DNA of 10,930 bases from a virus (Duplodnaviria > Heunggongvirae > Uroviricota > Caudoviricetes), in the IMG/VR virus record IMGVR_UViG_2684622580_000009; one strand, given 5' to 3'. The notes under the pieces were generated by a model. The model was not told where the DNA came from, did no database searches, and was given only the letters and a program-made list of their open reading frames with translations. Of this stretch, positions 1,005 to 10,930 are shown piece after piece. The translations under genes were made by a program, and so were the position numbers. Positions within the stretch are counted from its first letter, which is position 1, and each line of letters begins with the position of its first letter.

Positions 1005-1580
1005 CTACGGCAGTGCTGGCCATTCAATATCCTGTGCAGTTGACGTATCAACACGGTTCAGCAACACCCGATACTTTTTCCAGGCTTCCAGCAATGAGGT
1101 TTCTTCCTCCGTTGCGATTTCCAGATCTACAGCATCCTGAAGTGGCGCAATATGCTCACTGGCTACCTGCATCAGGCTGTTTTTTGTTTCTTCCGCCTCT
1201 CGGATCCGGAACAGTTTTTCTGCTTCTGCATCTTTCACCCAGGCTGTGCCGTTCCACTTCTGAAACTCCCCTTCCGGCGATAACCAGGTAACATTTTCCG
1301 GTAACGGACCGAGTTCAGAAATAAATAACGCGTCCCCTGACGCTACGTCATAAACCGTTTTACCCCGATGGTCTTCAACGAGATGCCACGATGCCTTATC
1401 ACTGTTGAAAACAGCCACAAAGCCAGCAGGAATATCTGGTGGTGCAATATCGGTACTGTTTGCTGGCAGACCTGTATGAGGCGGAATATATGCGTCACCT
1501 TCACCAATAAATTCATTAGTTCCGGCCAGCAGATTATAAATTTTTATGGTCCGTGGTTGTTCACTCATTCTGAATGCCAT
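1005..1580 (-). CDS. tfa: Tail fibre assembly protein (lambda Tfa-like), 191 aa
   Basis: Near-identical over its length to recalled lambda Tfa ([54 protein letters not shown]...); sits immediately downstream of the stf-derived ORF with a start/stop overlap at 1580. Confidence 0.9.
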
Positions 1581-2626
1581 TATGCAAGCCTCACAATATA
1601 GTTAAATGCGATGTTTTTGACGGTGTTTTCCGCGTTACCAGCAGCGTTAACGGTGATGGTGTGTCCATGTGAACCAATCGCAACGGAGTGCGTGTGTGCA
1701 CCAATACCGACAGTATGTGCGTGTGCACCTGCAGATGCTGCTGTGCCGGACAGTGAGTGGCTATGGTTACCATCTGTACTGGTATTAGCTAACGCCCCCG
1801 TAGACATACCTACTGAGCCTTGTACACCCCAGGTATTTTGACCTGAGCTTGTATAACCATATTGATAAGTATCTTTAAAAACACTGGGGTTAAATCGACG
1901 GCCATCTCTATGGCTGTGATTACCAGCTGCATTCGTGCTGCCACTTAAACTATGGGTATGCGCACCAGTGTTATTCGTGGATTTAGTGCCGTAATCAAAC
2001 GACGATGTGGTTTTCGTCCCCAAATCCGTACTGGATGCGCTGGCGCTGTGGGTATGCGATTTAATGCCGTCCTGTTCCTGAGACAATACGGCCCGACCAC
2101 TGGCAGGTTTGCCCTTAATCGTCCAGCCACGCATATCAGGGATCACGCCTGACGGATAAGCGGCTGCAAGTTTCGGGTATGCAGATTTGTCAAAAGTCTG
2201 CCCCTGCATCAGGGCATAGCCAGACGGAACGGTATCTGATGGCCACGGGATTGGTGCGCCAGGCGGATAAAACTGCTCTGATGGCGTATAGAGTGAATAA
2301 ACTGTACCGTCCGTTAACCCTTCCGGCTTATTAGCAGAATATGCTGGTGACGTATGAATCGTCACGTTGGCATTACTGGTATAACCGACACGGGCAGACT
2401 TCACCACATTCACCTCGCGGATGTAGTCGCTGCCCATCGCATTCATGATGGCCCGCTGAAAGGGCAGTGTTTCCCAGCGCCCTTCCTGGTATGCGGATTC
2501 TTTCGGGAGATAGTAATTAGCATCCGCCCATTCAACGGCGGTCTGTGGCTCCGGCCTGAACAGTGAGCGAAGCCCGGCGCGGACAAAATGCCGTAGCCTG
2601 TTAACCTGACTGTTCGATATATTCAC
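1580..2626 (-). CDS. Chimeric ORF: terminase large subunit A N-terminus (about 83 codons) fused in frame to the C-terminal region of side tail fibre Stf (about 265 codons)
   Basis: Residues 1-83 ([83 protein letters not shown]) match lambda gpA N-terminus; the remainder ([11 protein letters not shown]...GAHTHS...[29 protein letters not shown]) matches the lambda Stf C-terminus with its His-rich GxHxH repeats. Start overlaps the Nu1 3' end as in lambda. Junction near 2376-2379. Confidence 0.85.
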
Positions 2627-3146
2627 TCAGCAACCCCGGTATCAGTTCATCCAGCGCGGCTGCTTTGTTCATGGCTTTGATGATATCCCGTTTCAGGAAA
2701 TCAACATGTCGGTTTTCCAGTTCCGGAAAACGCCGCTGCACCGACAGGGGGATCCCGTCGAGAATACTGGCAATTTCACCTGCGATCCGCGACAGCACGA
2801 AAGTACAGAATGCGGTTTCCACCACTTCAGCGGAGTCTCTGGCATTTTTCAGCTCCTGTGCGTCGGCCTGCGCACGCGTAAGTCGATGGCGTTCGTACTC
2901 AATAGTCCCTGGCTGGAGATCTGTCTCGCTGGCCTGCCGCAGTTCTTCAACTTCCCGGCGCAGCTTTTCGTTCTCAATTTCAGCATCCCTTTCGGCATAC
3001 CATTTTATGACGGCGGCAGAATCATAAAGCACCTCATTACCCTTGCCACCGCCTCGCAGAACGGGCATTCCCTGCTCCTGCCAGTTCTGAATGGTACGGA
3101 TACTCGCACCGAAAATATCAGCCAGCTGCTTTTTGTTGACTTCCAT
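2601..3146 (-). CDS. nu1: Terminase small subunit Nu1 (lambda Nu1-like, NohD/NohQ-type), 181 aa
   Basis: Essentially identical to recalled lambda Nu1 ([71 protein letters not shown]...EYIEQSG); N-terminal winged HTH; correct spacing (about 190 bp) from cosN. Confidence 0.92.
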
Positions 3147-3480
3147 TGTTCATTCCACGGACAAAAACAGAGAAAGGAAACGACAGAGGCCAAAAAGCTC
3201 GCTTTCAGCACCTGTCGTTTCCTTTCTTTTCAGAGGGTATTTTAAATAAAAACATTAAGTTATGACGAAGAAGAACGGAAACGCCTTAAACCGGAAAATT
3301 TTCATAAATAGCGAAAACCCGCGAGGTCGCCGCCCCGTAACCTGTCGGATCGCCGGAAAGGACCCGCAAAATGATAATAATTATCATCTACATGTCACAA
3401 CGTGCATCTACGCCATCAAACCACGTCAAATAATCAATTATGACGCAGGTATCGTATTAATTGATCTGCATCAACTTAAC
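3147..3480. other. cos: Lambda-type cos site: cosB (3147-3323), cosN 12-nt cohesive-end sequence (3324-3335), cosQ side (3336 to about 3480)
   Basis: 3324-3335 AGGTCGCCGCCC is the reverse complement of the lambda left cohesive end GGGCGGCGACCT. Flanking DNA matches recalled lambda left-end sequence (to 3147) and lambda right-end sequence (CGTAACCTGTCGGATC...ATTATGACGCAGGTATCGTATTAATTGATCTGC, 3336 to about 3470) with a few substitutions. Confidence 0.85.
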
Positions 3481-3534
3481 GTAAAAAAAACTTCAGACAA
3501 TACAAATCAGCGACACTGAATACGGGGCAACCTC

Positions 3535-3729
3535 ATGTCAACGAAGAACAGAACCCGCAGAACAACAACCCGCAACATCCGCTTTCCTAACCAAATGATT
3601 GAACAAATTAACATCGCTCTTGAGCAAAAAGGGTCCGGGAATTTCTCAGCCTGGGTCATTGAAGCCTGCCGCCGGAGACTAACGTCAGAAAAGAGAGCAT
3701 ATACATCAATCCAAAGTGATGATGAATAA
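3535..3729 (+). CDS. ylcI: Small hypothetical protein, 64 aa, ribbon-helix-helix-like; tentatively YlcI/DUF3950-like
   Basis: Basic Arg/Thr-rich N-terminus followed by RNIRFPNQMIEQINIALEQKGSGNFSAWVIEACRRRL, which resembles an RHH (Arc/MetJ/CopG-type) fold. Length and position next to cos/Nu1 match what I recall for ylcI of DLP12. The symbol is tentative. Confidence 0.5.
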   Translation: MSTKNRTRRTTTRNIRFPNQMIEQINIALEQKGSGNFSAWVIEACRRRLTSEKRAYTSIQSDDE

Positions 3730-4088
3730 ACATCCCGGTTTCTTCCACCATCGCACCGGAAAAGCGACTATGAGGGTAACCCTGCGTCTGTCAGCACAGT
3801 AAAACCCGGTGTGCATCGTTTTTGATTATTCCCGCACACTCACGCAGAAGGAATTCCCCGTCGGGCTACGGTCATGGTTAATGCGGGAATACGGCGACGA
3901 TACAGCGCAGCTAAAAGGGTAATGGACAGAAAGAGCGGTTTATTTCATTCCACAGGATTCTGAGTGCCCCCCTCCTCCAATAGGCTGAGCATCCACCTAT
4001 ATAGTTTTAATTTTCATCAATCCATTTAACTATCGTTTAATTGTTGTCACATAGGATTCTGCCGTTTTTAACAATGCAGGATAATAAG

Positions 4089-4382
4089 ATGAAAAAAATG
4101 TTGTTTTCTGCCGCTCTGGCAATGCTTATTACAGGATGTGCTCAACAGACGTTTACTGTTGGAAACAAACCGACAGCAGTAACACCAAAGGAAACCATCA
4201 CCCATCACTTCTTCGTTTCGGGAATTGGACAGGAGAAAACTGTTGATGCAGCCAAAATTTGTGGCGGCGCAGAAAATGTTGTTAAAACAGAAACCCAGCA
4301 AACATTCGTAAATGGATTGCTCGGTTTTATTACTTTAGGCATTTATACTCCGCTGGAAGCGCGTGTGTATTGCTCACAATAA
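4089..4382 (+). CDS. bor: Bor lipoprotein (serum-resistance, lysogenic-conversion cargo), 97 aa
   Basis: MKKMLFSAALAMLITGCAQQ signal peptide with lipobox LITGC; matches recalled lambda Bor. RBS AGGATAA upstream of the ATG at 4089. The ORF-track start at 4041 is probably an upstream in-frame extension. Confidence 0.9.
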   Translation: MKKMLFSAALAMLITGCAQQTFTVGNKPTAVTPKETITHHFFVSGIGQEKTVDAAKICGGAENVVKTETQQTFVNGLLGFITLGIYTPLEARVYCSQ

Positions 4383-4413
4383 TTGCATGAGTTGCCCATC
4401 GATATGGGCAGCT

Positions 4414-4944
4414 CTATCTGCACTGCTCATTAATATACTTCTGGGTTCCTTCCAGTTGTTTTTGCATAGTGATCAGCCTCTCTCTGAGGGTGAAATAATC
4501 CCGTTCAGCGGTGTCTGCCAGTCGGGGGGAGGCTGCATTATCCACGCCGGAGGCGGTGGTGGCTTCACGCACTGACTGACAGACTGCTTTGATGTGCAAC
4601 CGACGACGACCAGCGGCAACATCATCACGCAGAGCATCATTTTCAGCTTTCGCATCAGCTAACTCCTTCGTGTATTTTGCATCGAGCGCAGCAACATCAC
4701 GCTGACGCATCTGCATGTCAGTAATTGCCGCGTTCGCCAGCTTCAGTTCTCTGGCATTTTTGTCGCGCTGGGCTTTGTAGGTAATGGCGTTATCACGGTA
4801 ATGATTAACAGCCCATGACAGGCCGACGATGATGCAGATAACCAGAGCGGAGATAATCGCGGTTATGCCCGTGACATACAGTCCATACACCAACAATATC
4901 TTTATATGGTATGTAGCTGACACCTTCCAGACCATCGTCACCAC
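4414..4944 (-). CDS. Rz: Rz-like i-spanin, 5' end replaced: lambda Rz homology runs from 4414 to about 4866; the ATG at 4944 is non-native
   Basis: From [14 protein letters not shown]... to ...KYINEQCR the product is near-identical to recalled lambda Rz from codon 5 onward. The first roughly 26 codons of this ORF are instead out-of-frame endolysin DNA. Native Rz start and RBS are absent. Confidence 0.8.
4473..4655 (-). CDS. Rz1: Rz1 o-spanin lipoprotein, 60 aa, embedded in the +1 frame of Rz
   Basis: [60 protein letters not shown]: lipobox VVGC and proline-rich segment, near-identical to recalled lambda Rz1. Confidence 0.85.
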
Positions 4945-5029
4945 TCGGACCAGTGATGAGCACAGACGCTATGGCAACAGCCCCACCACCAATAGCAGCT
5001 GCTACAGCCTTGCGTAATGATGGCGACAT
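4805..5029 (-). pseudogene. rrrD: Truncated SAR-endolysin (phage 21 R / RrrD-type lysozyme): only the first 55 codons are retained, followed by 19 out-of-frame codons
   Basis: [55 protein letters not shown] matches the SAR signal-anchor and start of the catalytic region of P21-type endolysins. The frame then runs into Rz DNA and stops at 74 aa, where a complete enzyme is about 165 aa. Start overlaps the holin stop (TAATG). Confidence 0.8.
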
Positions 5030-5389: not shown

Positions 5390-5816
5390 AAGCTGTGTGA
5401 CGAAGTAACCACTCTTAACAGCATAACCAATTTTTTACGTACGTAAACCACTAAATGATATTTGCGAGAATGCTACCGAGTATTGAAAACACCACTACAA
5501 ATACATAAGCAAATCTCAACAAATAACCAACAAATTATTTCCAGTGTTATTTTTAGCTTATTTAAATTGAACCTTCAAATTATAGAGCGCTTATAAATAA
5601 CAGCCGTTAATATAAATTGGCTAATAGATTTATTTTTATTCAGCAAAGAGCTATGAATAGGATTCGATAGAAAAAAGTTCAGATAAAAATAGAGATCTAC
5701 TTCACAAATCAAACGAGAAACCAAAACTTACATCTTGAAATAATCACATTGATTAGATGAATATTTATCGCGCAGTGACATCATTTTTTAATAATAGTTC
5801 AAAAAAAGGGCTCACG

Positions 5817-6914
5817 ATGAAAAAATTAACAGTGGCAATTTCTGCTGTAGCTGCATCAGTACTGATGGCGATGTCTGCTCAGGCAGCTGAAATTTATAAT
5901 AAAGACAGTAACAAGCTGGATCTGTACGGGAAAGTTAATGCTAAGCACTACTTCTCCTCTAATGATGCAGATGATGGTGATACTACTTATGCCCGTCTTG
6001 GCTTCAAAGGTGAAACCCAAATCAACGATCAACTGACTGGTTTCGGTCAGTGGGAATATGAATTCAAAGGCAACCGCGCTGAATCTCAAGGTTCCTCCAA
6101 AGACAAAACCCGTCTTGCATTTGCAGGCCTGAAATTCGGTGACTACGGCTCAATCGATTACGGCCGTAACTACGGTGTAGCATACGACATCGGTGCGTGG
6201 ACTGACGTTCTGCCAGAATTCGGTGGCGATACCTGGACCCAAACAGATGTGTTCATGACTGGTCGCACCACTGGTGTTGCAACCTATCGTAACAACGACT
6301 TCTTTGGTCTGGTTGATGGTCTGAACTTTGCTGCTCAGTACCAAGGCAAAAACGATCGTAGCGATTTCGATAACTACACTGAAGGTAACGGTGATGGCTT
6401 CGGTTTCTCTGCTACCTATGAATACGAAGGATTCGGTATCGGTGCAACTTATGCGAAATCTGATCGTACCGACACTCAAGTTAATGCAGGGAAAGTTCTT
6501 CCTGAAGTATTTGCTTCCGGTAAAAATGCAGAAGTTTGGGCCGCAGGTCTGAAATATGACGCTAACAACATTTACCTGGCCACTACCTATTCTGAAACCC
6601 AGAATATGACTGTATTTGCTGATCACTTCGTTGCTAATAAAGCCCAAAACTTCGAAGCTGTTGCACAATATCAGTTCGATTTCGGTCTGCGTCCGTCCGT
6701 TGCTTACCTGCAATCTAAAGGTAAGGATCTTGGAGTATGGGGCGATCAGGACTTAGTCAAATATGTTGATGTAGGTGCAACCTATTACTTCAACAAAAAT
6801 ATGTCTACTTTCGTTGATTACAAAATCAACCTGCTTGACAAAAATGACTTCACTAAAGCACTCGGTGTAAGCACTGATGACATCGTTGCTGTAGGTCTGG
6901 TTTACCAGTTCTAA
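5817..6914 (+). CDS. nmpC: Outer-membrane general porin, NmpC/OmpD/Lc-type, intact, 365 aa precursor
   Basis: Signal peptide [23 protein letters not shown] then [17 protein letters not shown]..., C-terminal VGLVYQF beta-barrel terminal motif with terminal Phe; matches recalled NmpC. The ATG at 5817 is preferred to the upstream ATG at 5757 because it starts the signal peptide and has a purine-rich stretch upstream. It sits opposite to the late genes between Q and S, as in DLP12/PA-2. Confidence 0.9.
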
Positions 6915-7487: not shown

Positions 7488-7654
7488 TAACTTTCTCCAC
7501 AAAATCAGGCCAGCACACCAATCGCCAGTGCGCGATCGATAAAACGAAATATCAGCTCCAGCTGGGAGCCATACTTCTCTTCAAATGCCACGGTACCCGT
7601 TATTCTAAAGATCTTGCAGATGAAGGCACCCGCTGCTTTATCGATGCCGATAAT

Positions 7655-8218
7655 ATGCGTGCCGTCAGTGTGCTTAACCTGGGTACTATTGATGAGCCAG
7701 GTCACGCAGATAACACTGCCACTCTCAAACTGAAAAAGACAGCACCGTTCTCTGCTCTGTTGTCTGTTAACGGCGAGCGTAACTCCCAGAAGTCACTGGC
7801 AGAATGGATCGAAGACTGGGCCGACTACCTTGTGGGCTTTGATGCTAATGGTGACGCCATTCAGGCAACAAAAGCGGCTGCGGCAGTCCGTAAAATCACG
7901 ATTGAAGCAAACCAGACCGCTGATTTTGAAGATAATGACTTCAGCGGCAAACGCTCCCTGATGGAGTCTGTCGAAGCGAAGACCAAAGACATTATGCCAG
8001 TGGCATTTGAATTTAAATGCGTTCCGTTTGAAGGTCTGAAAGAACGTCCGTTTAAATTACGCCTCAGCATTATCACTGGCGATCGTCCTGTACTGGTTCT
8101 GCGCATTATTCAGCTGGAAGCGGTGCAGGAAGAAATGGCTAACGAATTTCGTGATCTGCTTGTTGAGAAATTCAAAGACAGCAAAGTAGAAACCTTTATT
8201 GGTACTTTCACCGCCTGA
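7655..8218 (+). CDS. yfdQ: YfdQ-like (DUF2303) protein; possibly a 5'-truncated remnant
   Basis: Assigned mainly by synteny, directly upstream of an unmistakable yfdR-yfdS-yfdT run. The reading frame stays open about 58 codons upstream of the ATG at 7655 with no in-frame start, extending to within a few bp of the quuD start, which suggests a truncated longer gene. Confidence 0.5.
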
Positions 8219-8345
8219 TTTCATTACTGCAAATGCCCCTGCGGGGGCATTTATGGAAACGTAATTAACTCAATAATCGCCGGATGGTGAGGGCTTCCTT
8301 TTACCAGAATTCAGCGCGGTGCAGTGCATATACGTGGAGAACAAA

Positions 8346-8882
8346 ATGTCATTTATTAAAACTTTTTCCGGGAAGCATTTTTATTATGACAAGATAAATA
8401 AAGACGACATCGATATTAACGATATCGCGGTTTCCCTTTCAAATATCTGTCGCTTTGCCGGTCATCTTTCGCACTTCTACAGCGTCGCCCAACATGCGGT
8501 TCTTTGCAGCCAGCTGGTGCCGCAGGAATTTGCTTTTGAAGCGTTAATGCATGATGCAACAGAAGCGTATTGCCAGGACATTCCCGCACCACTGAAACGC
8601 CTTCTTCCTGACTATAAACGGATGGAAGAAAAAATAGACGCCGTAATCCGTGAGAAATACGGGTTACCCCCAGTTATGAGTACACCCGTGAAATATGCCG
8701 ATCTCATCATGCTGGCAACCGAACGCCGCGATCTCGGGCTTGATGATGGCTCTTTCTGGCCTGTACTGGAAGGCATCCCGGCAACAGAGATGTTCAACGT
8801 GATTCCACTGGCACCGGGTCATGCCTACGGGATGTTTATGGAACGTTTTAACGATTTATCGGAGTTACGCAAATGCGCATGA
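8346..8882 (+). CDS. yfdR: HD-domain 5'-deoxynucleotidase YfdR-like, 178 aa
   Basis: MSFIKTFSGKHFYYDKINKDD...CRFAGHLSHFYSVAQHAVLCS...LMHDATEAYCQDIP carries the HD-superfamily H...HD metal-binding motifs and matches recalled E. coli YfdR. RBS GGAGA 5 nt upstream of the ATG at 8346. Confidence 0.85.
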   Translation: MSFIKTFSGKHFYYDKINKDDIDINDIAVSLSNICRFAGHLSHFYSVAQHAVLCSQLVPQEFAFEALMHDATEAYCQDIPAPLKRLLPDYKRMEEKIDAVIREKYGLPPVMSTPVKYADLIMLATERRDLGLDDGSFWPVLEGIPATEMFNVIPLAPGHAYGMFMERFNDLSELRKCA

Positions 8883-9235
8883 ATGTTTTCGAAATGGAAG
8901 GGTTTCTTCGCGGGAAATGTGTACCGCGAGATCTGAAAGTGAACGAAACAAATGCTGAGTACCTGGTACGTAAATTCGACGCGCTTGAAGCTAAATGTGC
9001 GGCACTGGAAAACAAAATAATACCAGTGTCAGCTGAACTGCCACCAGCAAATGAAAGTGTTCTGTTATTTGATGCTAATGGAGAAGGCTGGCTGATTGGC
9101 TGGCGTTCTCTCTGGTACACCTGGGGACAAAAAGAAACCGGAGAATGGCAGTGGACATTTCAGGTCGGGGACCTTGAAAACGTCAATATCACTCACTGGG
9201 CAGTAATGCCAAAAGCACCGGAGGCTGGAGCATAA
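8873..9235 (+). CDS. yfdS: YfdS-like prophage protein of unknown function, 120 aa
   Basis: Matches recalled YfdS of CPS-53/KplE1. Start overlaps the yfdR stop (alternative ATG at 8879 forms an ATGA overlap), indicating translational coupling. Confidence 0.7.
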   Translation: MRMNVFEMEGFLRGKCVPRDLKVNETNAEYLVRKFDALEAKCAALENKIIPVSAELPPANESVLLFDANGEGWLIGWRSLWYTWGQKETGEWQWTFQVGDLENVNITHWAVMPKAPEAGA

Positions 9236-9540
9236 TGACCACATTTACCAATAAAGAACTGATTAAAGAAATCAAAGAACGAATCAGCAGCCTAGAGGTT
9301 CGAGACGATATTGAGCGCCGTGCTTATGAAATCGCACTCGTATCTCTGGAAGTAGAGCCAGTTGAACGCGAAGCCTATGAATTATTCATGGAAAAGCGTT
9401 TCGGTGACTTAGTAGATCGTCGGAGAGCAAAAAACGGCGATAACGAATACATGGCATGGGATATGACTCTCGGTTGGATCGTCTGGCAGCAACGAGCTGG
9501 TATCCATTTTTCAACAATGACACAGCAAGAGGTGAAATAA
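9235..9540 (+). CDS. yfdT: YfdT-like prophage protein of unknown function, 101 aa
   Basis: Matches recalled YfdT; TAATG stop/start overlaps at both ends (with yfdS at 9235 and with the next gene at 9540). Confidence 0.7.
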   Translation: MTTFTNKELIKEIKERISSLEVRDDIERRAYEIALVSLEVEPVEREAYELFMEKRFGDLVDRRRAKNGDNEYMAWDMTLGWIVWQQRAGIHFSTMTQQEVK

Positions 9541-9911
9541 TGGAGCCATACAGCCTCACACTCGATGAGGCCTGTCAGTTTCTTAAGATATCCAGACCAA
9601 CCGCCACCAACTGGATACGAACAGGCCGCCTACAGGCAACACGTAAAGATCCAACCAAGCCAAAATCTCCTTACCTCACAACACGGCAAGCTTGCATTGC
9701 GGCGCTTCAGTCTCCGCTGCATACTGTCCAGGTGAGCGCGGGTGATGGCATAACAGAGGAAAGAAAATGTCACTCTTCCGCAGAAATGAAATATGGTATG
9801 CCTCGTATTCGCTCCCGGGCGGGAAACGAATTAAGGAATCTCTTGGCACAAAGGACAAGCGGCAAGCTCAGGAGTTGCACGACAAGCGAAAAGCAGAACT
9901 CTGGCGAGTAG
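9540..9911 (+). CDS. Excisionase / AlpA-like HTH DNA-binding protein (putative Xis); 3' end uncertain, the open frame runs 145 nt into int
   Basis: N-terminal about 60 aa ([30 protein letters not shown]) has the excisionase/MerR-type HTH signature. RBS GAGGTG upstream of the ATG at 9540. Sits immediately 5' of the integrase. The C-terminal about 45 codons overlap int in another frame and are low-complexity, so the true stop may have been lost. Confidence 0.55.
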
Positions 9912-10930
9912 AAAAGCTAGGGGATTTACCTGATGTCACTTTTGAAGAGGCCTGCCTAAGATGGCTTGAGGAAAAAGCTGATAAAAAATCTCTCGATTCA
10001 GATAAAAGCCGGATTGAGTTCTGGCTTGAACATTTTGAGGGTATAAGGCTTAAAGATATCTCGGAGGCAAAGATTTACTCTGCTGTAAGCAGAATGCATA
10101 ACAGAAAGACGAAAGAAATATGGAAACAGAAAGTTCAGGCCGCCATCAGGAAAGGTAAAGAACCGCCTGTTTATGAACCAAAGCCAGTATCAACTCAGAC
10201 AAAGGCAAAGCATCTTGCCATGATAAAGGCCATTCTCCGTGCTGCAGAACGCGACTGGAAGTGGCTGGAAAAAGCGCCTGTCATCAAGATACCAGCGGTC
10301 AGAAACAAGCGAGTCAGATGGCTGGAAAAGGAGGAAGCAAAACGCCTTATTGATGAGTGCCCCGAACCACTGAAATCTGTCGTCAAGTTTGCGCTGGCAA
10401 CTGGTCTGAGAAAGTCGAACATCATAAATCTGGAATGGCAACAAATCGACATGCAGCGACGAGTTGCCTGGGTGAATCCAGAAGAGAGCAAATCAAACCG
10501 CGCCATTGGTGTGGCGCTGAACGATACCGCCTGTAAAGTGTTGCGTGATCAAATAGGCAAGCATCACAAATGGGTGTTTGTACATACCAAGGCGGCTAAG
10601 CGAGCAGATGGAACATCAACGCCTGCGGTCAGGAAGATGCGCATCGACAGCAAGACATCATGGCTATCAGCTTGTCGTCGTGCAGGAATTGAAGATTTCC
10701 GTTTCCATGACCTCAGACACACCTGGGCAAGCTGGCTGATCCAGTCAGGCGTCCCATTATCTGTGCTTCAGGAAATGGGCGGATGGGAGTCCATAGAAAT
10801 GGTTCGTAGGTATGCTCACCTTGCGCCTAATCATTTGACAGAGCATGCAAGGAAAATAGACGACATTTTTGGTGATAATGTCCCAAATATGTCCCACTGT
10901 GGAATTATGGAGGATATAAAGAAGGCGTAA
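9767..10930 (+). CDS. intD: Tyrosine site-specific integrase (lambda Int family, IntD-like), 387 aa
   Basis: Closely resembles recalled DLP12 IntD throughout. The C-terminal catalytic region carries R...HDLRHTWAS...[15 protein letters not shown] with the Tyr nucleophile in RRYAH. RBS GAGGAAAG upstream. Stop codon is the last triplet of the window. Confidence 0.93.

Follow-up and report, generated by a model that had tools for sequence, protein, structure and literature searches.

Why should a prophage element without head genes, and with only a stub of its large terminase gene, still carry a complete lambda-type cos site beside an intact small terminase gene? The locus in question lies in a 10,930-nucleotide stretch of Caudoviricetes DNA (IMG/VR record IMGVR_UViG_2684622580_000009), referred to here as the window. 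An earlier note on this DNA had pointed to the cos site and proposed that a lambda-like phage supplying terminase could cut and package DNA from it, in the manner of cosmids and cos-type satellite islands, or alternatively that the locus might interfere with the packaging of such a helper. Below, the site itself is described, then the origin of the element that carries it, and finally what a helper terminase might be expected to do with it.

The cos site and the terminase genes

The 12-nt cohesive end, GGGCGGCGACCT, has a single match in the window, at 3324–3335 on the minus strand, where 0.03 matches would be expected by chance. It lies within a 1,377-bp segment (window 3746..2370, minus strand) that matches the circularised lambda junction (lambda 48092..48502 followed by 1..~960, cos included) in one BLAST alignment at 97.7% identity. 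In this alignment lambda base 1 corresponds to window position 3335, lambda 48502 to 3336, and the ATG of Nu1 (lambda 191) to 3146. To the left of cosN, the cosQ heptamer, GGGTCCT, reportedly placed at lambda 48473–48479 by Wieczorek & Feiss 2001, occupies 3359..3365 on the minus strand and is the same in lambda, Turner, PhiR11_1 and the window, as is its distance from cosN in the window and in lambda. The left side of cosN differs from lambda by nine substitutions between 48427 and 48486, none of which falls in the heptamer.

The remaining subsites were defined according to Feiss et al. 2015 (PMC4669245) and Murialdo & Feiss 2022 (PMC9026076), the former also describing cosQ as the subsite for packaging termination. 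The nicking site cosN, defined as 16 bp (PMC9026076), comprises the cohesive end at 3324–3335 and 2 bp on either flank (3322..3337, minus strand) and is the same as in lambda. The subsites of cosB follow in the order R3-I1-R2-R1 (PMC4669245, PMC9026076), with the spacing between cosN and R3 preserved. The TerS binding site R3 (lambda 50–65, AGGCGTTTCCGTTCTT; coordinates from PMC9026076) is found at 3271..3286 on the minus strand. The spacer between R3 and R2 (3228..3270, minus strand) contains the IHF site I1, which is placed here only to the spacer as a whole. R2 (lambda 109–124) is inverted with respect to R3 and R1 and reads CTGTCGTTTCCTTTCT on the plus strand at 3212..3227, while R1 (lambda 151–166 in reference numbering) is located at 3171..3186 on the minus strand; R2 and R1 represent one and the same 16-mer (PMC9026076). 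R3, the spacer, R2 and R1 are all the same as in lambda.

Over lambda 1–190, which covers cosN, cosB and the sequence up to the Nu1 ATG, the window shows no substitution relative to laboratory lambda or DE3. The sole difference from the reference sequence NC_001416 in this segment is the missing G138, which is also missing from DE3 and from natural prophages, and the resulting 189-nt distance between cosN and Nu1 is likewise common to them. The earlier description of a cohesive end and flanking cosB and cosQ DNA almost unchanged from lambda is therefore borne out, and scoring the lambda alignment at R3, R2, R1 and I1 found every one of them present and free of substitutions relative to laboratory lambda. 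The interval first assigned to the site, 3147–3480, does contain cos, although the functional site extends only from 3171 to 3365. Moreover, window 3118–3487 is 100% identical to the corresponding DNA of the isolated phages PhiR11_1 and Turner, so that this exact cos variant serves phages deposited as isolates; their viability is taken from the GenBank records, in which both are isolates with named hosts, the host of PhiR11_1 being K-12 MG1655.

Directly downstream in the packaging sense lies nohD (RefSeq), encoding Nu1, the small terminase subunit (2601..3146, minus strand). Its ATG is 189 nt from the first base of the cohesive end, and its product is an intact protein of 181 aa (Pfam Phage_Nu1, E=3.9e-101) that is 100% identical to the Nu1 of PhiR11_1, differs from lambda Nu1 at two positions (A75T, L132I) and from K-12 NohD at one amino acid. 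Nu1 is thus full length, as had been supposed. With cosN and its symmetric flanks, cosQ, the R3-I1-R2-R1 series with R2 inverted, and an adjacent TerS gene, the features of a complex cos of the lambda type are all found here, and judged by its sequence the region is a genuine lambda-specificity cos (cosQ-cosN-R3-I1-R2-R1) together with its cognate TerS gene.

The large terminase subunit, in contrast to Nu1, is represented only by gpA′, the first 82 codons of the gene (2381..2626, minus strand). All 82 residues are identical to lambda gpA, and the sequence diverges from residue 83 onward; the Pfam GpA_ATPase match is weak and limited to residues 47–87. At this point the reading frame continues into a C-terminal fragment of the side tail fibre gene stf (1580..2380, minus strand; Pfam Collar and Phage_fiber), which matches the stf C-terminus of Turner (Turner 13243–13702). 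The fusion ORF gpA′::stf (1580–2626, 348 aa) overlaps the end of Nu1 and lies downstream of it in the late operon. The gpA gene had been described as reduced to 83 codons, which is essentially right: 82 lambda-identical residues are followed by an in-frame tail-fibre C-terminus. The statement that all structural genes are gone holds for the capsid, portal and tail genes and for the rest of TerL, but not for the tail fibre, since an intact tail-fibre assembly gene, tfa (1005–1580, RefSeq annotation), remains next to the stf C-terminal fragment.

Origin of the element and age of the cos site

At least 80% of the window's length is covered in 36 of 5,426 complete E. coli genomes, the best match being strain KSC9 (NZ_CP018323) at 99.9%. 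RefSeq annotation places the KSC9 locus at the DLP12 site, with the tRNA-Arg gene argU 16 bp past the right end of the window. The 47-bp att core that bounds DLP12 in K-12 occurs in exactly two copies in KSC9, at NZ_CP018323 positions 2928288 and 2945656, giving an element of 17,368 bp between the repeats. Starting from argU, the gene order in KSC9 is intD, an xis-like ORF, yfdT, a phage protein gene, yfdR, a truncated DUF2303 gene and a DUF968 fragment, then quuD, a porin gene, essD, a truncated lysozyme gene, rzpD, iss/bor and ylcI, and finally cos, nohD, the gene annotated as “phage tail protein,” tfa and a Pin-type recombinase gene. The rest of the element lies past the window's left end and carries ydfK, ynaM/ynfT, a gene for a methyltransferase, IS3, a fragment of tfa, a gene for an alpha/beta hydrolase and, last, ompT. 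On the cosQ side the immediate neighbour of cos is ylcI (3535..3729, plus strand; Pfam DUF3950, RefSeq).

The integration genes lie at the right end of the window. The tyrosine integrase gene intD (9767..10930, plus strand; 387 aa; Pfam Phage_integrase) adjoins argU and has 99.4% nucleotide identity to intD of K-12. The start of the gene is overlapped by the xis-like ORF (9540..9911, plus strand; 123 aa; Pfam HTH_17). PGAP annotates merely a 22-codon fragment at this position; the complete ORF matches ORFs of phages PhiR49_1, Kati and PhiR29 at 100% identity from end to end. The int/xis pair had been called intact, and this agrees with a whole int, an xis ORF identical to those of isolated phages and two exact 47-bp att cores.

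On these grounds the element is, by its gene content and position, a DLP12-family cryptic prophage: it has the argU site with the 47-bp att repeat, intD, the order quuD-porin-essD-rzpD-bor-ylcI-nohD, and ompT at the distal end, and BLAST against the K-12 locus gives identities of 94–99%. Its closest known system is DLP12 (qsr′) of K-12 itself, with which it agrees on every family feature that can be assessed. K-12 DLP12 occupies the same site between argU and ompT with the same 47-bp repeat, and has the same order, intD ... quuD-nmpC-essD-rzpD-borD-ylcI-cos-nohD-gpA′. Over window 2370–3746, the K-12 cos-nohD(nohB)-aaaD segment is 98.0% identical in nucleotide sequence, with the one-residue difference in NohD given above. 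There are nonetheless several differences between the two. Gene gpA is joined to the stf C-terminus after codon 82 in the element but to tfaD after ~103 codons in K-12 DLP12; in the early region, yfdQRST-like genes stand in place of exoD...rusA; the element has a truncated lysozyme gene and an intact porin gene, the reverse of K-12; and the K-12 DLP12 cos variants C53T, A73G, T85A and T102C are missing from the element's cos. The left arm of the element (ydfK-pin-tfa-stf) resembles that of a second K-12 prophage, Qin, which breaks at the end of Nu1 and has no gpA′. Homology to both lambda and K-12 DLP12 ends at 2370, which could suggest a breakpoint shared among these loci; this was rejected, position 2370 being merely the window's own junction. 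K-12 aaaD extends past 2370, and the break in Qin falls where Nu1 ends, which makes three different junctions in the three loci.

A more complete relative is phage Turner (PP925837), which has 48,223 bp and a full gene set. Its order is int, xis, attP with a tRNA fragment, homologues of ompT and of the hydrolase, methyltransferase and pin genes, then tfa, stf, lom and J; the tail and head genes, portal, W, gpA, Nu1, cos, ylcI, bor, Rz, R, S, the porin gene and Q; and the nin region, an emrE-like gene, ren, P, O, cII, cro, cI and the red genes. Turner and PhiR11_1 (PV340547) share 99–99.6% identity with the element over att-ompT...pin-tfa, cos-Nu1-bor-Rz and xis-int, and their cos and Nu1 sequences are the same as the element's. 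Unlike the element, these 48–49-kb phages possess full-length gpA, head and tail genes, lysozyme, and the immunity, replication and recombination modules, and they are effectively “live DLP12” phages.

The KSC9 element is colinear with Turner at 96–99.6% identity except for a small number of defined losses. The first is a deletion of ~21 kb (Turner ~13.8–35.08 kb) from the stf N-terminus to gpA codon 83, which removed the large terminase, head and tail genes. The second, of 338 bp, lies within the lysozyme gene (Turner 37,580–37,917) and inactivated it. In addition, the early region (Turner 40.6–48.2 kb and 0–5.0 kb), which covers the immunity, replication and recombination modules, has been replaced by ~2 kb of yfdQRST-like DNA (window 7523–9539), and relative to Turner an IS3 has been inserted left of the window. 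This colinearity marks the element as a recently decayed Turner-like phage and a variant of DLP12. We therefore favour, with a probability of roughly 85%, the explanation that a 48-kb lambda-family phage resembling Turner and PhiR11_1 gave rise to the element through recent deletions, with cos left as a passive remnant. Every deletion would have spared cos and Nu1, and too little time would have passed for point mutations to accumulate in them. The intact state of cos would then reflect the recency of the decay, as suggested by the ~99% identity to isolated phages, with no detectable selection.

An alternative is that purifying selection, or else repeated gene conversion from incoming lambdoid phages, has kept cos and Nu1 intact in the defective prophage because they benefit the host or a phage, one such benefit being a landing pad for recombination. 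Orphan cos sites are indeed very frequent, and in K-12 DLP12 and Qin cosQ, cosN, the R3 core, R2 and R1 are invariant even though the spacers carry substitutions. De Paepe et al. 2014 found that the junctions of recombination between lambda and DLP12 cluster beside cos (10 of 19), and attributed this clustering to breaks made by terminase (PMC3945230). The window haplotype is itself mosaic, resembling K-12 DLP12 to the left of cosN and lambda to the right. The same mosaic haplotype, however, is present in the isolated phages Turner and PhiR11_1, and so was inherited by the element and not made in it.

To evaluate conservation, divergence was compared segment by segment (ylcI, non-coding DNA, cos, Nu1 and gpA′) against lambda, K-12 DLP12, K-12 Qin and 11 loci from other genomes, and cos was compared site by site with eight prophages that have an intact large terminase gene. 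Five of the “spread” loci had been sampled as a source of polymorphism in defective lineages; all five proved to have a full-length large terminase gene and were used as intact comparators. Relative to PhiR11_1 and Turner, the 2,497 bp aligned over window 2370–4865 contain 20–22 mismatches, none of them in the 195 bp of cos. About 1.7–1.9 changes would be expected in 195 bp, so that the absence of changes is no statistical excess of conservation over the flanks (Poisson P(0)≈0.16–0.18), in a comparison whose power to detect selection is very low at ~1% divergence. The cos sites of K-12 DLP12 and Qin diverge from the window by 2.1% and 3.1%, compared with 1.1% and 0.9% for Nu1, and this cos divergence equals or exceeds that of Nu1 or of the adjoining non-coding DNA. 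Conservation of cos beyond that of its non-coding neighbours is accordingly not seen in the K-12 defective loci, and for the window itself the comparison has too little power to show it. The K-12 variants C53T, A73G and T102C are also found in prophages with a full-length large terminase gene (from E. albertii, Shigella flexneri and locus L084), and by this comparison are best described as standing polymorphism in working cos sites. Finally, in a second Qin-type locus (L047) cosN, R2 and R1 show decay. Active maintenance of cos in the defective state is in our estimation very unlikely, and recent decay of a Turner-like phage accounts better for its preservation.

Cutting and packaging by a helper terminase

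In lambda, TerS bound at R3, R2 and R1, together with IHF at I1, positions TerL for the nicking of cosN (PMC4669245, PMC9026076). Terminase then remains with the end that carries cosB; once docked on the portal, it translocates the DNA starting there, and termination requires a downstream cosQ and cosN (PMC4669245). Chromosomal prophage cos sites can be used by the terminase of a helper; in the helper assay of Feiss et al., prophage DNA was packaged only between an upstream and a downstream cos, with 1–4 particles produced per cell (PMC4669245). In lambda recombinants the cos and nu1 of K-12 DLP12 proved functional, and those with R, Rz or nu1 of DLP12 were viable (PMC3945230). This report by De Paepe et al. 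was the only one found in a literature search on nohA/nohB.

With a cos sequence shared with isolated phages, an intact Nu1 and int, a full-length xis ORF and two exact att cores, the element should be open to cutting by a lambda-specificity terminase supplied in trans. The sequence of events can be outlined from established lambda biology and the published experiments on K-12 DLP12. During growth of a helper with the packaging specificity of lambda, the helper's TerS and TerL, with IHF, would bind cosB and nick cosN. The end bearing cosB and Nu1 would enter the prohead, and translocation would proceed toward ompT and the chromosome past it. The realistic outcome would be a double-strand break stimulating homologous exchange with the infecting phage, and the element would then act as a gene reservoir for lambdoid phages, not as a satellite that mobilises itself.

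The direction of packaging is unfavourable for mobilisation of the element. From the cosB end it runs through nohD, gpA′::stf, tfa and pin to ompT, away from int/xis, and beyond ompT it would reach envY, nfrA, cus and ent. No second exact cosN is found within ~56 kb in this direction in KSC9; the 37 loose matches to GGGCGG+6N beyond the element are within expectation for GC-rich DNA. Without a downstream cosQ-cosN within a head-length, termination would be improper, and mature transducing particles are not expected.

Packaging of the excised form meets a further difficulty. The circle measures 17,368 bp, and its dimer and trimer 34.7 kb (72% of lambda length) and 52.1 kb (107%). Lambda packages ~78–105% of its genome length, or ~38–51 kb, so that both multiples fall outside the range and are unsuited to lambda heads. 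The comparison with a cosmid was rejected for this reason and because no replicon is present. Excision itself may occur, as int, xis and both att cores look intact, and some low-frequency helper-mediated transfer may come with it.

The proposal that the element is excised by Int and Xis, cut at cos by a helper's terminase and carried in the helper's capsids, like a cosmid or a cos-type satellite island, can be set against phage-inducible chromosomal islands (PICIs). Cos-type PICIs are likewise small (10–17 kb) integrated elements with int and a lambda-like cosN but no large terminase or capsid genes, and lambda or phi80 can be packaging helpers of PICIs (PMC6092414, PMC6739421). A cos identical to that of isolated phages, an intact Nu1, int, a full-length xis ORF and exact 47-bp att repeats would all suit such a role. 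However, PICIs carry alpA, pri-rep with an origin, their own non-phage cosB and an Rpp that redirects TerS, and lack phage lysis and Q genes, whereas the element has a phage-type cosB, an ordinary Nu1, and phage genes that PICIs do not keep: Q, holin, Rz/Rz1, a lysozyme remnant, tfa and the stf fragment. The annotation of the entire 17.4 kb, together with Pfam scans, showed neither a pri-rep/origin module nor an AlpA-type activator, an Rpp with an island-specific cosB, or a gene for capsid-size remodelling. The only small helix-turn-helix ORF in the element is the P22-type xis beside int, and none is annotated as alpA. The absence of a replicon means that there is no source of concatemers. In the island EcCICFT073, loss of pri-rep lowered transfer ~100-fold and loss of alpA abolished it.

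A precedent for packaging in trans is found in O157 Sakai, where the terminase of Sp14 packages the defective prophage Sp4 (PMC2669165). Sp4 likewise has no working terminase of its own, and its cos is almost the same as the one in a phage resident in the same cell. The two cases differ in other respects. Sp4 is large and owes its amplification to regional replication that starts in a prophage next to it, whereas the 17.4-kb element has no replication source. Furthermore, unlike Sakai with Sp14, KSC9 has no co-resident lambda-type gpA: the lambda-type gpA N-terminus occurs at one place in the record, which indicates that a resident helper of that kind is missing. The distribution of the element also looks clonal and not like that of a spreading island, its exact gpA′::stf deletion junction (~2370–2384) being found in 25 of the 5,426 genomes and the whole window in 36. 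The satellite and cosmid analogy fails on anatomy, and we consider it improbable that the element travels in this way. Of the mobilisation route suggested earlier, cutting by a helper terminase is supported at the level of sequence, and only in this weakest form is the suggestion plausible; cosmid- or satellite-style packaging is poorly supported given the missing replicon, alpA and rpp, a packaging direction away from int/xis, the lack of a second cos and multiples of unsuitable length. Decay of a Turner-like phage remains the better explanation of why cos is present.

One configuration in which the orphan cos might still move DNA deserves mention. Turner-like phages use the same argU att site as the element. 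If such a phage were integrated in tandem on the argU side, the two cos sites would be co-oriented and, by arithmetic, ~37.3 kb apart (a helper cos-att arm of ~29.6 kb plus an element att-cos arm of ~7.7 kb), at the lower edge of the lambda range. In this case the helper terminase could package a hybrid chromosome carrying the int-xis-yfdQRST-Q-porin-bor/iss arm of the element. More generally, cos-initiated, one-directional transfer of chromosomal DNA might start from the thousands of orphan cos sites in E. coli, or these sites might be recombination hot spots shaping lambdoid mosaicism. We regard movement of DNA by these means, whether from a tandem helper or from orphan sites at large, as something of a long shot.

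Orphan cos sites in Escherichia coli

Orphan cos sites of the lambda type are widespread in E. coli and have already been studied. A 254-bp cos query matched 8,844 places in 4,590 of the 5,426 genomes, about twice the number found with an internal segment of lambda gpA (4,717 places in 3,337 genomes). As a rough estimate, then, the internal gpA segment is missing for about half of the lambda-type cos places, and at least ~1,250 genomes have cos while the segment is absent altogether. A species-wide search with Nu1 returned mostly lambda DNA contamination in unrelated assemblies, along with ~30 real enterobacterial prophages. K-12 itself has two orphan cos+noh loci, DLP12 and Qin.

These loci bear on the suggestion that the element interferes with helper packaging. 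Under that proposal the chromosomal cos, the resident Nu1 and the gpA(1–82)::Stf fusion would be decoys, titrating the terminase of the helper or poisoning it. The N-terminal segment of gpA reportedly binds Nu1, according to work by Frackman and Feiss, and this segment is kept in the fusion; gpA residues 1–82 are retained in frame, downstream of Nu1 and overlapping it. An in-frame junction is nevertheless expected one time in three, and the length of gpA′ varies by lineage, from ~103 codons in K-12 DLP12 and 82 in the element to none in Qin. Chromosomal copies of cos number 1–4 per cell, against many helper genomes (PMC4669245). Ten proteins of the window were scanned with PADLOC; the N-terminus of Nu1 resembles mad1 (E=1e-11), which is probably just general helix-turn-helix similarity, and there was no other match. 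A role as a defence system was rejected, this sole match being at the level of the helix-turn-helix. K-12, the standard and permissive host of lambda, carries its two orphan cos+noh loci, one of them with a gpA′ fragment. Interference is therefore unlikely in general, and that the element's cos, Nu1 and fusion serve as decoys strikes us as extremely unlikely, in comparison with their being what is left of a Turner-like phage.

Taken together, the observation of an intact cos and Nu1 in an element deprived of its large terminase is confirmed, and its first interpretation is partly supported; real as it is, the finding is an ordinary one, of a phenomenon known before. The trans-packaging of a terminase-less lambdoid prophage with a matching cos is likewise an idea already published, in the case of Sp4 and Sp14 (PMC2669165). 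Were efficient cos-initiated transfer from orphan sites to occur, it would add a route by which cos phages transfer chromosomal genes, although nothing suggests such efficiency. What the element documents is one more decay state of the well-known DLP12 prophage, in which an orphan cos is sequence-perfect only as a recent derivative of phages that still circulate. In E. coli, where cos places outnumber those of the gpA internal segment about twofold, orphan cos+Nu1 loci of this kind supply homologous DNA to infecting lambdoid phages, along with a break made by terminase that favours exchange, as the literature already describes.

Terminase remnant, tail-fibre genes and cos variants

The remnant of the large terminase gene gpA lies in a fusion ORF on the minus strand (1580-2626), in which gpA residues 1-82 are joined in frame to a 266-aa tail-fibre C-terminus containing Collar and fibre-repeat domains. 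RefSeq labels this ORF merely as "phage tail protein". Among 5,426 complete E. coli genomes, only 25 have this gpA::tail-fibre junction. Separately, a 121-bp stretch of tfa (1041-1161) recurs at 88% identity in a tfa fragment past an IS3 element, approximately 2.9-3.1 kb to the left of the window (positions 2934-3054 of L001). This repeat is probably a remnant of a Pin-invertible tail-fibre segment.

Orphan cos sites are also found in E. coli K-12, in the DLP12 (L005, 17581-17841) and Qin (L006, 6362-6622) prophages. In each, one base at the edge of R3, a TerS-binding subsite of cosB, is substituted: C53T in DLP12 and G54A in Qin (lambda numbering), both of which fall just beyond the TerS contact segment, bp 55-63. 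A73G and T102C are present in both K-12 sites as well. Of these changes, C53T, A73G and T102C are found too in prophages whose large terminase gene is intact. In the prophage of E. coli 09-00049 (L087, 2416-3310), cosB is interrupted by an IS66-family insertion that lies approximately 40 bp ahead of the Nu1 start codon; the large terminase gene of this prophage is full length, and no cos match was recovered at this locus.

Nu1 matches outside the lambda-like phages

Residues 1-55 of Nu1 (gene at 2601-3146, minus strand), which form a winged helix-turn-helix, match the PADLOC profile "mad1" of the MADS methylation-associated defence system (E=1e-11). The match probably reflects generic helix-turn-helix similarity. 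Nu1 at 96-100% identity to lambda was also obtained from assemblies of unrelated organisms, including Kitasatospora, Chromatium, Paenibacillus, Pseudomonas, Shewanella, Oceanobacillus, Limosilactobacillus and Amycolatopsis (loci L013-L021, L024, L027, L028, L031, L039, L041, L044, L045, L049, L051-L053, L055, L056, L059, L063 and L065). The contigs concerned are often of low coverage, and some are approximately 48.4 kb in length. Contamination of the public assemblies with lambda control or ladder DNA almost certainly accounts for these sequences.

Lysis cassette, porin gene and early region

Compared with the phages Turner and PhiR11_1, the lysozyme gene of the window (rrrD/R homologue; 4414-5029, minus strand) is missing 338 bp, leaving a 74-aa N-terminal stub that reads into Rz. 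Intact genes for the holin, Rz and Rz1 remain, and the element therefore retains a lysis cassette without a muralytic enzyme. Between Q and the holin gene, and on the strand opposite to both, is an NmpC/OmpD-type porin gene (5757-6914, plus strand; Pfam Porin_1, E=1e-156). This gene is intact, whereas its K-12 homologue nmpC is interrupted by IS5. PhiR11_1 and Turner have this porin gene as well.

The entire immunity, replication and recombination region of a Turner-like ancestor is replaced by an approximately 2-kb block of yfdQ/yfdR/yfdS/yfdT-like genes (7523-9539), in which the DUF2303 gene is N-terminally truncated. The block resembles genes of the K-12 CPS-53 prophage and has no counterpart in Turner or K-12 DLP12. 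It is followed by a xis-like ORF of 123 aa (9540-9911, plus strand; HTH_17) whose final 145 nt are shared with the start of intD. The NCBI pipeline, PGAP, annotates this ORF as a 22-codon pseudogene fragment; however, ORFs in the phages PhiR49_1, Kati and PhiR29 match it at 100% identity along its whole length, and RefSeq has probably under-annotated it.

Phage relatives and possible cargo genes

Turner and the PhiR series are isolated lambda-like phages whose genomes include homologues of ompT, ydfK, pin, an emrE/QacE-like gene and the genes for an alpha/beta hydrolase and a methyltransferase; in Turner (L083, PP925837) these homologues lie within 6389-13243 and 45271-45603. The att site of these phages is argU, and they resemble DLP12 in an intact form that still circulates. 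The comparison suggests that ompT and emrE of K-12 arrived as phage cargo genes.
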